A stretch of DNA of 64,000 nt from Bixzunavirus tonenili (taxonomy: Duplodnaviria > Heunggongvirae > Uroviricota > Caudoviricetes), in IMG/VR virus record IMGVR_UViG_2706796412_000001, positions 1 to 64,000 of that record; one strand, written 5' to 3'. Shown here piece by piece: positions 3,592 through 36,563 of this stretch. Below the pieces are notes generated by a model. It saw only the letters and a program-made list of their open reading frames with translations, did not search any database and was not told the origin of the DNA. Numbering within the stretch: the first letter of the stretch is position 1; every line of letters starts with the position of its first letter. Position numbers and translations under genes: made by a program.

Positions 3592-3608
3592 AAAACACCG
3601 AGCGCGCA

Positions 3609-3643
3609 GGAATGAAATACCCTGTAGATGCGCTATAGTGGGA
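3609..3643 (+). promoter_or_regulatory. promoter-like motif GGAATGAAAT..GCTATAGTGGGAT with CACTCACC leader
   Basis: member of repeated GGAATGA(N17-19)TATAnT family, 38 nt upstream of gene 3681. Confidence 0.45.
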
Positions 3644-3680
3644 TAGACTGATCACGCACACACTCACCAAGGGAGACCAT

Positions 3681-4358
3681 ATGCCCAGACTCATCACGGA
3701 CAAGCGCGGCGCCAAGCTGGCCCGCGAGATCCTCACCCAGATCGAGGCCGAAGTGGAGGCCCAACTGGTACGCGAGTCGTCTACTTCTACTGAAGGCCCG
3801 GTGTGGAACCAGAGCGTGTGGGTCATGGTCGACCTCGACCTGCTTCCTCCGCGTTCATCGGTCGAGCTGATTGATCCCGCCACGATCACCGCCCGTCGAT
3901 CGCTTGACTATGTTCCGAACGGGCACGCCGTTCGGTCAGGCTTGGCGGCGGCGATCGACAGCGGGGTCGGTCCCTCCTGCGGCACGGCCCTGTGCTTTGC
4001 CGGGCATGCCTCGATCATGGCGGGCGACCGGTATGTCATCCCGGTGAGACCGGAGGTCGCCCAGAAGCTCAGGACCGGAAGGGTCCGGCGCAGTCTGCGG
4101 CACTTCGTGAACAACTATCGGCACAAGCTGCCTCCCTCCCTCTCCGACATCCTCGGTTCGACAGTGATCACGCCGGACAACGAGGTGACGACGGTCGAGA
4201 TCCGCGCGCGGGAACTGCTGGGCCTCACTGCAGGAGAGGCAGAAACGCTTTTCGCTGGCGGAAACACCCTCTCCGACCTGCGCAGGTACGTGGAGATGAT
4301 GGAGCAGGGCCTGCACCTGGTCACCGGCAGGCCAAAGCGTCGGAGGTGGGCTCGATGA
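3681..4358 (+). CDS. hypothetical protein (225 aa)
   Basis: ORF after promoter motif and AAGGGAG RBS. Confidence 0.5.
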   Translation: MPRLITDKRGAKLAREILTQIEAEVEAQLVRESSTSTEGPVWNQSVWVMVDLDLLPPRSSVELIDPATITARRSLDYVPNGHAVRSGLAAAIDSGVGPSCGTALCFAGHASIMAGDRYVIPVRPEVAQKLRTGRVRRSLRHFVNNYRHKLPPSLSDILGSTVITPDNEVTTVEIRARELLGLTAGEAETLFAGGNTLSDLRRYVEMMEQGLHLVTGRPKRRRWAR

Positions 4359-35798: not shown

Positions 35799-35848
35799 TC
35801 GACATGATCGCTTTCCGCCTGAGTTTGTCCTCATCGCTAGTTAGCTAG

Positions 35849-35869
35849 CGGAGGGCTCACTCCTCCGCG
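35849..35869 (+). terminator. hairpin GCGGAGG-gctcact-CCTCCGC
   Basis: 7-bp perfect stem 50 nt after stop of polyvalent gene, just before tRNA array. Confidence 0.35.
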
Positions 35870-35874
35870 TCTAA

Positions 35875-35957
35875 GGAGGGTGAGCATCAGGTGATGCAGC
35901 GAGATTGCTAATCCCGTACGGTAACCACCCCGTGAGGTTCGAATCCTCCTCCCTCCG
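35875..35957 (+). tRNA. tRNA-Ser(GCU)-like, class II (hand-folded)
   Basis: acceptor GGAGGGT/TCCCTCC, D-stem GCAT/ATGC, anticodon loop TTGCTAA with imperfect stem, long variable arm, T-arm GAGG-TTCGAAT-CCTC, G73. Confidence 0.4.
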
Positions 35958-36065
35958 CGTAGTACATCTATGGAGGATGAAGCAGCCGCGTAGTGCGGCG
36001 ACCGGATTCGAAACCCGGGTAGCGCGTCATGGCGCTTGGGGAGCGTGCCCTCCTTCCTCCGCTTG

Positions 36066-36149
36066 GGAGAAGAAACCGTCAAGGCTGACGGGACCGCTTG
36101 GAAAGCGGCTCGTGGGTAACACCATGAGGATCGTGCCCTCTCTTCTCCG
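36066..36149 (+). ncRNA. aberrant tRNA-like cloverleaf (8-bp acceptor, 6-bp D-stem with 4-nt loop, GGA anticodon-like loop, long variable arm, non-canonical T-loop)
   Basis: GGAGAAGA/TCTTCTCC closing stem; hairpins CCGTCA-aggc-TGACGG, CCGCTT-ggaa-AAGCGG, GAGG-atcgtgc-CCTC stacked on acceptor; G discriminator. Confidence 0.3.
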
Positions 36150-36150
36150 C

Positions 36151-36225
36151 GCTCCCGTAGCCCAATTGGCAGGAGGCACCAGATTCAGGATCTGGGCAGT
36201 GTGAGTTCGAATCTCACCGGGAGTA
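36151..36225 (+). tRNA. tRNA with Leu anticodon CAG but class-I architecture (75 nt)
   Basis: acceptor GCTCCCG/CGGGAGT, U8A9, anticodon stem CCAGA/TCTGG loop TTCAGGA, 5-nt variable loop GCAGT, T-arm GTGAG-TTCGAAT-CTCAC, A73. Confidence 0.5.
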
Positions 36226-36345
36226 CGTGTGTGTTCCATGTGGCGGATGTCCCGACTGCGGGCCGGTGTACGCGTGCGAACGTTGCGTCAAGGCAGCGTT
36301 CGACCGGGTGCTGGTCCGCTGGGCCTCTGTCCTGGAACGCCTCGC

Positions 36346-36419
36346 GTCTCTGTAGGCAAACCGGAAAAGCCGCCATCTTGAGGGGGTGGTGCGTGCGGGT
36401 TCGACTCCCGCCAGAGACA
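36346..36419 (+). tRNA. tRNA with Leu anticodon GAG but class-I architecture (74 nt)
   Basis: acceptor GTCTCTG/CAGAGAC, D-stem GGC/GCC with 11-nt loop, anticodon stem CCATC/GGTGG loop TTGAGGG, variable TGCGT, T-arm GCGGG-TTCGACT-CCCGC, A73. Confidence 0.5.
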
Positions 36420-36420
36420 C

Positions 36421-36493
36421 GCCGTGGTAGGCCATCTGGCGAGCCGCCGAATTCAAGTTTCGGTGTTTGCGGGTTCGAATCCCGCCCACGGTA
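36421..36493 (+). tRNA. tRNA with Leu anticodon CAA but class-I architecture (73 nt)
   Basis: acceptor GCCGTGG/CCACGGT, perfect anticodon stem CCGAA/TTCGG loop TTCAAGT, variable TGTTT, T-arm GCGGG-TTCGAAT-CCCGC, A73. Confidence 0.5.
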
Positions 36494-36563
36494 CAACCTG
36501 TAGAAAACCTACCGACCTGTTCTAACCAGTAGGAGCAACACCTTCTATCTGGCAGGAGCAGGG

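Follow-up and report, generated by a model that had tools for sequence, protein, structure and literature searches.

An unannotated, probably functional (8/4) tRNA-Ser(GGA) gene with an A54-type T-loop in the tRNA array of Mycobacterium phage Tonenili

The stretch of DNA analyzed here (the window, 64,000 nucleotides (nt)) corresponds to bases 1-64000 of Mycobacterium phage Tonenili (NC_031080; Bixzunavirus, cluster C), with 100% identity and the same coordinates. At positions 36066-36149 of its + strand it holds a tRNA-like element which is probably a functional serine tRNA gene of the (8/4) type. The element is located in a 192-nt gap without annotation, with tRNA-Ser(gct) (35875-35958) on one side and tRNA-Leu(cag) (36151-36226) on the other, and the same gap is unannotated in Cali and among all listed of the ~95 near-identical cluster C1 records. 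It is the third of three tandem Ser-type genes (anticodons GCU, CGA and GGA), which are followed by three tRNA-Leu genes; 4 nt separate it from the upstream Ser-type gene and 1 nt from tRNA-Leu(CAG). The parts of the element are given below; the first line draws on sequence, fold, covariance model and covariation, and the others were read from the sequence.

36066-36149, + strand: putative (8/4) tRNA-Ser(GGA) gene, unannotated in NC_031080
36066-36073 with 36141-36148, + strand: acceptor stem of 8 base pairs (bp), GGAGAAGA with TCTTCTCC
between the acceptor 5' strand and the D-arm, + strand: linker AA
36076-36091, + strand: D-arm CCGTCA-AGGC-TGACGG, 6-bp stem and 4-nt loop
36094-36108, + strand: anticodon arm CCGC-TTGGAAA-GCGG, anticodon GGA at 36100-36102
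36109-36125, + strand: variable region of 17 nt, containing a 4-bp stem GUGG/CCAU
36126-36140, + strand: T-arm GAGG-ATCGTGC-CCTC, loop at 36130-36136, adjoining the acceptor 3' strand
36149, + strand: discriminator G73

The acceptor, D-arm, anticodon arm, T-arm and 17-nt variable region described in the initial annotation are all found in the sequence at the positions given there, and its structural reading, namely a tRNA-like cloverleaf with a Ser GGA anticodon, a selenocysteine (Sec)-like 8-bp acceptor, a 6-bp D-stem with tetraloop and an odd T-loop, proved right upon inspection. The element retains G1-C72, G2-C71, A3-U70, C11-G24, G73 and a long variable arm, and CCA is not encoded at its 3' end.

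Mukai et al. 2017 described tRNAs with 8/4 and 9/3 branches and reported (8/4) tRNA-Ser from bacteriophages, from proteobacteria and from Clostridia of the rumen; these tRNA-Ser are located in phage tRNA clusters and are characterized by Sec-like D-arms, long variable arms and G73 or U73 (PMC5389517). As reported there and in a later study, 8/4 and 9/3 tRNAs are serylated and used in translation in E. coli (PMC5389517; PMC7609411). The element carries the corresponding features throughout: the 8 bp of GGAGAAGA/TCTTCTCC and the 4 bp of GAGG/CCTC add up to a 12-bp branch, the long variable arm (17 nt with a 4-bp stem) is accompanied by G73 at 36149, the 7-nt loop UUGGAAA presents the anticodon GGA behind U33, and the D-arm combines a long stem with the tetraloop AGGC, in which Y20 follows G18 and G19. 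Judged by its sequence, the element thus agrees with the (8/4) tRNA-Ser class in every sequence-level feature and would not represent a new RNA class. The earlier suggestion of a novel structured RNA is disfavoured, because the architecture matches the phage (8/4) tRNA-Ser already described in the 2017 work (PMC5389517). The likeness extends to the Ser anticodon and to the location in a phage tRNA cluster, and the homologs found in phages of Alphaproteobacteria and Bacteroidota (see below) fit the habitats reported there; the text of that paper mentions neither actinobacteriophages or mycobacteriophages nor an A54-type T-loop.

Other known tRNA types fit less well. A canonical elongator tRNA is not supported, with no match to the Rfam tRNA model RF00005 (gathering score 29 bits), a paired position 8 and the T-loop AUCGUGC. 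Like the element, tRNA-Sec (RF01852) has an acceptor of 8 bp, a D-stem of 6 bp closed by a 4-nt loop and a long variable arm, but its branch comprises 13 bp (8/5), its anticodon is UCA and its anticodon stem has 6 bp, whereas the element has a 12-bp branch (8 + 4), the anticodon GGA and an anticodon stem of 4 bp plus an A-C mismatch, and it does not match the tRNA-Sec model (threshold 47 bits). The allo-tRNAs of Acidobacteria, Clostridia and Proteobacteria resemble the element in the 8/4 redistribution of the 12-bp branch, the Sec-like D-arm, the long variable arm and G73. They differ from it in mostly non-Ser anticodons and longer anticodon stems, and a role in missense or nonsense suppression or in regulation is established or proposed for them (PMC5389517; PMC7609411). 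The cognate Ser anticodon and the short anticodon stem of the element speak against an assignment to this group.

To what extent the fold stands out from chance was evaluated in several ways. The minimum free energy (MFE) of the + strand is -39.5 kcal/mol compared to -25.6 +/- 3.1 kcal/mol for shuffled sequences (z = -4.5), and none of 200 shuffles was as good. A loose layout scanner returned 8 matches in five shuffled 64-kb windows; with ~1.6 chance layouts per shuffled window, a bare cloverleaf layout is therefore not unique and no proof by itself. A covariance model (R1) built here from 14 seed sequences is far more discriminating: the element scores 88.2 bits (E ~1e-18), and the only matches within the 64-kb window are 35875-35957, 35975-36061 and 36066-36149, that is, the three tandem Ser-type genes.

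The main evidence comes from covariation. In the 14-sequence seed, 94.9% of the pair cells are paired, compared to 42-50% in slid controls, and changes on both sides are seen in 20 of the 28 pairs. Among 85 distinct R1 matches, 92.6% of the pair cells are paired (slid controls, 42-54%) and compensatory changes on both sides occur in all 28 pairs, with a covariation score of 0.79 versus ~0.1; none of 500 shuffles reached the observed values. The same set of 85 bears on the distribution of the 12-bp branch: pair 8 is GC in 30 sequences, AU in 21, UA in 16, CG in 8 and GU in 6, and pair 7 covaries as do all four T-stem pairs. Covariation at acceptor pairs 7 and 8 and in the 4-bp T-stem identifies the branch as 8/4 and not 7/5; to read the element as 7/5, one would moreover have to accept a U-U pair within the T-stem and a linker of 3 nt. 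All six D-stem pairs show changes on both sides, the D-loops of relatives contain GG, the variable stem is 91.6% paired, and 27:43 is unpaired in 33 of 84 sequences, which makes the mismatch a class feature. Applied to the 85 relatives, the covariation analysis on homologous phage regions that had been proposed at the outset hence yielded strong variation that preserves the structure of each of the five helices.

Individual relatives illustrate this variation. The positional ortholog in Bigswole has an identical anticodon arm, while its D-stem reads CCAGGC/GCCTGG versus CCGTCA/TGACGG here, its T-stem is GGGC/GCTC, its variable stem is re-paired and its T-loop is the canonical TTCGACT; the two genes differ by a 1-nt indel and paired substitutions, a pattern that is not coding-like. 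Phages of cluster M (Rey, MrMagoo, Nanosmite, PegLeg and Reindeer) carry a Ser(GCU) gene with the loop AUCGUGC, the T-stem GUGG/CCAC and the D-stem CCCACC/GGUGGG. Canonical-T-loop 8/4 Ser genes were found in Gizmo-type C1 phages, Myrna, Phabba, Rey, REQ2 and Streptomyces phage Stella. The element itself is 100% identical in nearly all of the ~95 Cali-type genomes, and roughly every second C1 phage lacks the GGA gene.

The most unusual part of the element is its T-loop. The initial annotation described it as an exchange of A54 and T58, which is correct for this copy (A54, U58) but does not hold as a rule for the class, in which position 58 is U or A: MD18 and MrMagoo have A58 alongside A54, and a strict 54/58 swap is therefore rejected. 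Across the class, A54, C56, R57 and G59 stay the same, as does U55, which is sometimes G. Among 123 unique family sequences, 58 have A54-type T-loops and 58 canonical UUC-type loops; of the former, 48 read AUCGUGC and the remainder AGCGUGC, AUCGUGA, AUCAAGA and similar, with the AGCGTGC variant restricted to mycobacteriophage-like contigs. In Tonenili, the GCU gene has the canonical loop and the CGA and GGA genes have the A-type. Of the 29 other tRNAs of this phage, 28 are 7/5 with UUC-type loops, and the annotated tRNA-Gly(gcc) at 100844-100917 (L305:36844-36917) combines an A54/U58 T-loop, ATCGTAA, with a canonical 7/5 body. As this tRNA-Gly(gcc) carries AUCGUAA, A54 T-loops are tolerated in conventionally recognized phage tRNAs; the same tRNA-Gly(gcc) sequence is given for 114 C1 phages in the supplement of an eLife 2023 study (PMC10264068). 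A comparison of anticodon, D-loop and linker with loop type across the family revealed no feature that clearly tracks it. The idea that the A-type loop marks the anticodons targeted by VapC toxins was rejected, as Gizmo, Myrna and Rey have canonical-loop CGA genes and cluster M has A-type GCU genes.

Eukaryotic initiator tRNAs have A54 and A60 in a T-loop AUCGAAA. The element shares with them A54 followed by U55-C56-R57, and the loops AUCGAGA and AUCAAGA of MD18 are nearly identical to AUCGAAA; the element differs in having U58 and C60 and in being an elongator-type phage Ser tRNA, and no link to initiation is suggested. Such initiator-like A54 loops indicate that a tRNA can be L-shaped with A54 in its T-loop. 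In the element, the T-loop AUCGUGC retains U55, C56 and G57 and the D-loop AGGC retains GG, so that the elbow contacts G18:U55 and G19:C56 can still form; a cryo-electron microscopy structure of an allo-tRNA derivative shows a D tetraloop that preserves both contacts (PMC9561287). The A54-type T-arm, G[G/A/U]GG-AUCGUGC-CC[U/A]C, is both a handy search handle and a structural feature that merits biochemistry.

Using this T-arm pattern followed by ...CCG (GGATCGTGCCCNCNNNNNNCCG), IMG/VR was scanned; most matches are due to chance, and at least 119 viral loci were obtained, and in ~48 of the matches listed the motif terminates a complete 8/4 cloverleaf on its 3' side. Among the matches listed for bacterial contigs (100 loci and a further 20 loci), only those on L221 (in the 100) and L292 (in the further 20) are real; the ratio of viruses to bacteria among these listed matches is indicative only. 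Both contigs, L221:6662-7008 (Planctomycetota metagenome-assembled genome, DASXUX010000004.1) and L292:116-825, hold three Ser-type genes each within a tRNA array and are possibly prophages or mis-binned phage contigs. A-type genes were confirmed by R1 in Cellulophaga phages phi10:1 and phi4:1 (Bacteroidota) and in Phaeobacter phage MD18, and BLAST homologs were found in Cellulophaga phage phi17:2, Sulfitobacter phage phiCB2047-B, DSS3_MAL1 and two uncultured phages of >600 kb. The homologs in Cellulophaga, Phaeobacter and Sulfitobacter phages, DSS3_MAL1 and the >600-kb phages are all unannotated or lie under a 'hypothetical protein'. Overall, the A-type T-arm is conserved in phages as different as GC-poor marine ones and actinophages, and few of the sampled bacterial contigs carry it. 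A full-text literature search for the T-arm motif string returned nothing relevant.

The anticodons of the family are consistent with a function in serine decoding. The relatives' anticodons are nearly all GCT, TGA, CGA, GGA or AGA. All 57 parsed A-type members have a Ser anticodon (GCU 27, UGA 15, CGA 12 and GGA 3), all 58 have G73, and 55 of 58 start with GGA at the 5' end. Within single arrays (L126, L125, L077, L134 and MD18), A-type and canonical-loop genes are found on different Ser anticodons, one gene each; in Phaeobacter phage MD18, for example, the GCU gene has the loop AUCGUGA, GGA has AUCGAGA, UGA has UUCGAUU and CGA has AUCAAGA. One gene per Ser anticodon is what would be expected if the isoacceptors work, and not if the genes were decoys or duplicates in decay. 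Serine codons in the likely coding open reading frames (ORFs) of Tonenili are distributed as TCG 33%, AGC 30%, TCC 20%, AGT 7%, TCT 6% and TCA 4%, and the anticodons CGA, GCU and GGA together read ~96% of them; the tRNAs with CAG, GAG and CAA read ~98% of the Leu codons. In the second tRNA region of the phage (95.7-102.4 kb; 26 tRNAs and the transfer-messenger RNA), no Ser or Leu gene is annotated, and R1 found no Ser gene over 64-113 kb.

Taken together, these results make it very likely that 36066-36149 is a genuine gene of the 8/4 tRNA-Ser class, and we consider it an unannotated and probably functional (8/4) tRNA-Ser(GGA) gene; charging and translational use of its product are predicted, with less confidence than class membership. 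The proposed route is that Ser-GCU, Ser-CGA, Ser-GGA, Leu-CAG, Leu-GAG and Leu-CAA would be transcribed as a single array, from which the tRNA would be excised by RNase P and 3' processing enzymes, with CCA added post-transcriptionally. The 8-bp acceptor would stack on the 4-bp T-stem to form the usual 12-bp branch, and host seryl-tRNA synthetase could charge the tRNA via G73, the pairs G1-C72, G2-C71 and A3-U70, C11-G24 and the long variable arm. The resulting tRNA-Ser(GGA) would supply decoding of UCC and UCU during infection.

A number of points weigh against a functional tRNA-Ser(GGA). ARAGORN makes no call at 36066-36149, and neither RF00005 (tRNA) nor RF01852 (tRNA-Sec) matches this interval at the gathering score or at E<=10; ARAGORN is one of the detectors that the initial annotation had recommended. 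An A-C mismatch occupies position 27:43 atop the anticodon stem, and just 4 bp make up the variable stem. The MFE fold lengthens the variable helix with CUC:GAG pairs at the cost of the T-stem, whose pairs have an ensemble probability of ~0.33; the best structure that keeps the T-stem lies at -39.2 kcal/mol, and with the cloverleaf within 0.3 kcal/mol of the MFE, folding does not really prefer a different structure, an outcome named beforehand as damaging to the cloverleaf. Alignment to a covariance model favours the modelled structure and inflates the pairing percentages somewhat, although the slid controls lie so far below that this makes no difference. Conservation of the T-arm is partly built in, as the viral contigs were chosen by a T-arm pattern, yet the D, anticodon and variable stems, which played no part in that selection, pair with quite different sequences. 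The gene is evolutionarily dispensable, Gizmo-type C1 phages being without a GGA copy, and the seryl-tRNA synthetase identity set applied to the element is one which we take over from work on E. coli, not on mycobacteria.

Several of these points would also be expected of a decaying duplicate of a phage tRNA-Ser that still folds by chance: standard detectors miss the element, the A27-C43 mismatch and the short variable stem are present, the T-stem competes with another helix, and about half of the C1 phages are without the gene. Decay is, however, difficult to reconcile with a perfect 8-bp acceptor and 6-bp D-stem, 100% identity in nearly all of the ~95 Cali-type genomes and the recurrence of the same T-arm in unrelated phages of different phyla and GC content. 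Compensatory changes relative to Bigswole and cluster M keep all helices, the 27:43 mismatch is shared by the class, and a functional GGA copy is absent elsewhere in the genome. The degenerate pseudogene of the initial annotation consequently has the structure-preserving variation of five helices in 85 relatives against it, and we regard it as very improbable. An RNA that is made but does not decode, serving as a decoy or sponge for toxins (VapC28, VapC30 or MenT3) or for tRNA-modifying enzymes, would owe its exclusion from normal translation to the A54 T-loop and the 8/4 body. The A54/A60 combination of eukaryotic initiator tRNAs contributes to their exclusion from elongation, and this was counted in favour of a decoy, as was the non-canonical T-loop. 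The host toxins VapC28, VapC30 and MenT3 do target Ser tRNAs (PMC5175351; PMC10435456), and some allo-tRNA-like species are inactive in E. coli (PMC7609411). A decoy has, on the other hand, no need of a cognate Ser anticodon, which is nevertheless present in all parsed A-type members; the A-type genes take isoacceptor slots that are otherwise empty in the array, the CGA, GCU and GGA set fits the three commonest Ser codons, U55, C56 and R57 of the elbow are retained together with the D-loop GG, and GGA is not a demonstrated target (PMC5175351). Invariant Ser anticodons and G73, non-redundant isoacceptors and the match to Ser codons thus render the decoy, likewise raised in the initial annotation, improbable.

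Finally, the region might not encode an RNA at all and reflect chance inverted repeats, a terminator of the minus strand or part of an ORF. A minus-strand terminator scan indeed lists the D-arm hairpin (36091-36076, tail TTTCTTCTCC), mechanical ORFs at 35905-36204 (+) and 36027-36239 (-) span the region, and the chance rate of cloverleaf-like layouts in shuffled windows has been given above. The terminator is disfavoured: there is no minus-strand gene upstream, the flanking genes being on the + strand, the hairpin is better explained as a covarying D-arm, and terminator-like sites do not outnumber those in shuffles (2 versus 0.9 +/- 1.1). The coding alternative was rejected, the ORFs overlapping annotated tRNAs as well and the 1-nt indel and paired substitutions in Bigswole being unlike coding changes. 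The R1 E-value of the element also speaks against the absence of an RNA gene, and the covariation data effectively refute this explanation, which we deem extremely improbable.

The putative tRNA-Ser(GGA) also bears on a published claim, which concerns the same biological question in the same group of phages. In their study of C1 phages, van den Berg et al. (eLife 2023) reported avoidance of tRNA-Ser(gga/tga/cga/aga), with tRNA-Ser(gct) as the only Ser tRNA carried and as compensation; the rationale was that the GA of these anticodons is where VapCs cut. Phage Ser tRNAs with GGA or CGA are missing from their table (PMC10264068). According to our analysis, Cali/Tonenili-type C1 phages encode both CGA and GGA and Gizmo-type phages encode CGA. 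As these genes are present but undetected, the avoidance inference is contradicted, and on the sequence evidence 'avoidance' by C1 phages appears to be, at least in part, a detection artefact. ARAGORN detects the 8/4 class inconsistently and the Rfam tRNA model misses the element, which amounts to a systematic blind spot; as a consequence, phage tRNA arrays look serine-poor, and spurious 'hypothetical protein' coding sequences (CDSs) or 'SeC' calls cover the loci. Morgado and Vicente (2018) described 'selenocysteine' tRNAs in cluster C arrays (PMC5966550); these are plausibly mis-typed 8/4 Ser genes, probably because both upstream Ser genes match tRNA-Sec, though below threshold (39.5 and 22.5 bits). 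The finding thereby corrects the annotation of many genomes, contradicts a published inference and highlights a conserved A54-type T-arm in a class of Ser tRNAs that was encountered here almost solely in phages: two unannotated Ser tRNA genes (CGA and GGA) are added for Tonenili and the ~95 near-identical cluster C1 records, and cluster M arrays do encode tRNA-Ser, R1 finding CGA and GCU in MrMagoo and Nanosmite, where none is annotated.

As side observations on annotation, MD18 (L307) has four 8/4 Ser genes at 1790-1878, 1889-1972, 2501-2584 and 3599-3682 (CGA, UGA, GCU and GGA), none of which is annotated in its record and two of which ARAGORN calls with shifted ends. CDSs labelled 'hypothetical protein' lie over 8/4 Ser genes in Rey (gp113 and gp114, L008:2887-3180), MrMagoo (gp110, L004:2647-2793), Nanosmite (gp103, L005:2824-2964), Cellulophaga phage phi4:1 (gp076, L308:2483-2584) and MD18 (QJA42961, L307:2319-2522). 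CDSs that overlap 8/4 tRNA-Ser genes in this manner are probably mis-called or start too early.

With regard to the host toxins, VapC28 and VapC30 cleave host tRNA-Ser(TGA) and tRNA-Ser(CGA), VapC11 cleaves Leu(CAG), and host Ser(GGA) is bound by VapC30 non-productively, that is, without cleavage (PMC5175351); MenT3 prefers Ser tRNAs (PMC10435456). The Ser and Leu(CAG) tRNAs encoded by the phage correspond to the host species cleaved by VapC28/30 and VapC11, and whether 8/4 bodies are resistant to VapC or MenT becomes a testable question. It is conceivable, but in our judgment rather unlikely, that the A54/G59 T-loop on an 8/4 body is an adaptive, nearly phage-only signature that shields these tRNAs from host enzymes reading the elbow or T-arm. 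Candidate enzymes would be those for m1A58 methylation, which is impossible on U58, and the tRNA-Ser-directed toxins VapC28/30 or MenT3; host Ser tRNAs are assumed in this comparison to be canonical 7/5. If shielding of this kind were true, serine decoding would persist while host tRNA-Ser is inactivated during infection, and a class-I-like tRNA-Leu without the long variable arm would be a parallel solution for leucine.

The neighbouring genes of the array are as follows.

35875-35957 (35875-35958 in the record), + strand: tRNA-Ser(GCU), annotated (ARAGORN; annotation; R1 45.6 bits)
35972-36061, + strand: 8/4 Ser-type gene, anticodon CGA, unannotated (sequence; R1 45.6 bits, aligned from 35975)
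36151-36226, + strand: tRNA-Leu(CAG) (ARAGORN; Rfam 54.8 bits)
36346-36420, + strand: tRNA-Leu(GAG) (ARAGORN; Rfam)
36421-36494, + strand: tRNA-Leu(CAA) (ARAGORN; Rfam)

The annotated tRNA-Ser(GCU) is of the 8/4 type too (GGAGGGTG/CTCCCTCC, with a U-U mismatch at acceptor pair 7) and has a canonical T-loop, GAGG-TTCGAAT-CCTC; its 39.5 bits with the Rfam tRNA-Sec model are sub-threshold, and the tRNA model is not reached at the gathering score. In the CGA gene, the acceptor GGAGGATG/CTTCCTCC also has a U-U mismatch at pair 7, G73 is at 36061, an extra AAGCA linker precedes the D-stem, and in the T-arm GGGG-AGCGTGC-CCTC G55 replaces U55. Its 22.5 bits with tRNA-Sec are sub-threshold, and its fold alone is not significant (z = -0.7 to -1.4). 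The AAGCA-linker subtype recurs in L039, in the unrelated viral contigs L057, L094 and L099 and in Nanosmite and MrMagoo of cluster M, and the extra linker resembles the loop between acceptor and D-stem of irregular 8/4 tRNAs (PMC7609411).

Together with 36066-36149, the tRNA-Leu genes presumably belong to one tightly packed, co-transcribed array. A long variable arm is normal for bacterial tRNA-Leu. The three tRNA-Leu genes here are class-I-like (74-76 nt, a variable loop of ~5 nt and A73) and without the long variable arm; short Leu tRNAs beside 8/4 Ser genes were also observed in L221, L071, L134 and L126, and the Leu tRNAs of Bigswole, Myrna, Phabba and MD18 measure 82-86 nt. Between tRNA-Leu(cag) and tRNA-Leu(gag), a Cys-rich ORF of 42 amino acids (VCVPCGGCPDCGPVYACERC...) is found at 36227-36355 (+), and in cluster M a different mini-ORF with a CxxC...CP pattern directly follows the A-type Ser(GCU) gene (L008:3064-3180).

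Directly upstream of the first Ser gene, at 35848-35868 (+), lies a hairpin GCGGAGGG-CUCAC-UCCUCCGC (z = -2.4), the arms of which look similar to the Ser genes' acceptor ends, GGAGG.../...CCUCCG; in Gizmo, Myrna and Bigswole, this place is taken by another hairpin, GAGGGC-GCUU-GCCCUC. The hairpin at 35848-35868 could be a remnant or a signal for processing or termination. In the second tRNA region, a tRNA with the anticodon CTA at 97314-97385 (L305:33314-33385) is annotated as 'tRNA-Stop(cta)' and elsewhere typed as Pyl or Sup; located beside a peptidyl-tRNA hydrolase gene, it is a possible amber suppressor.

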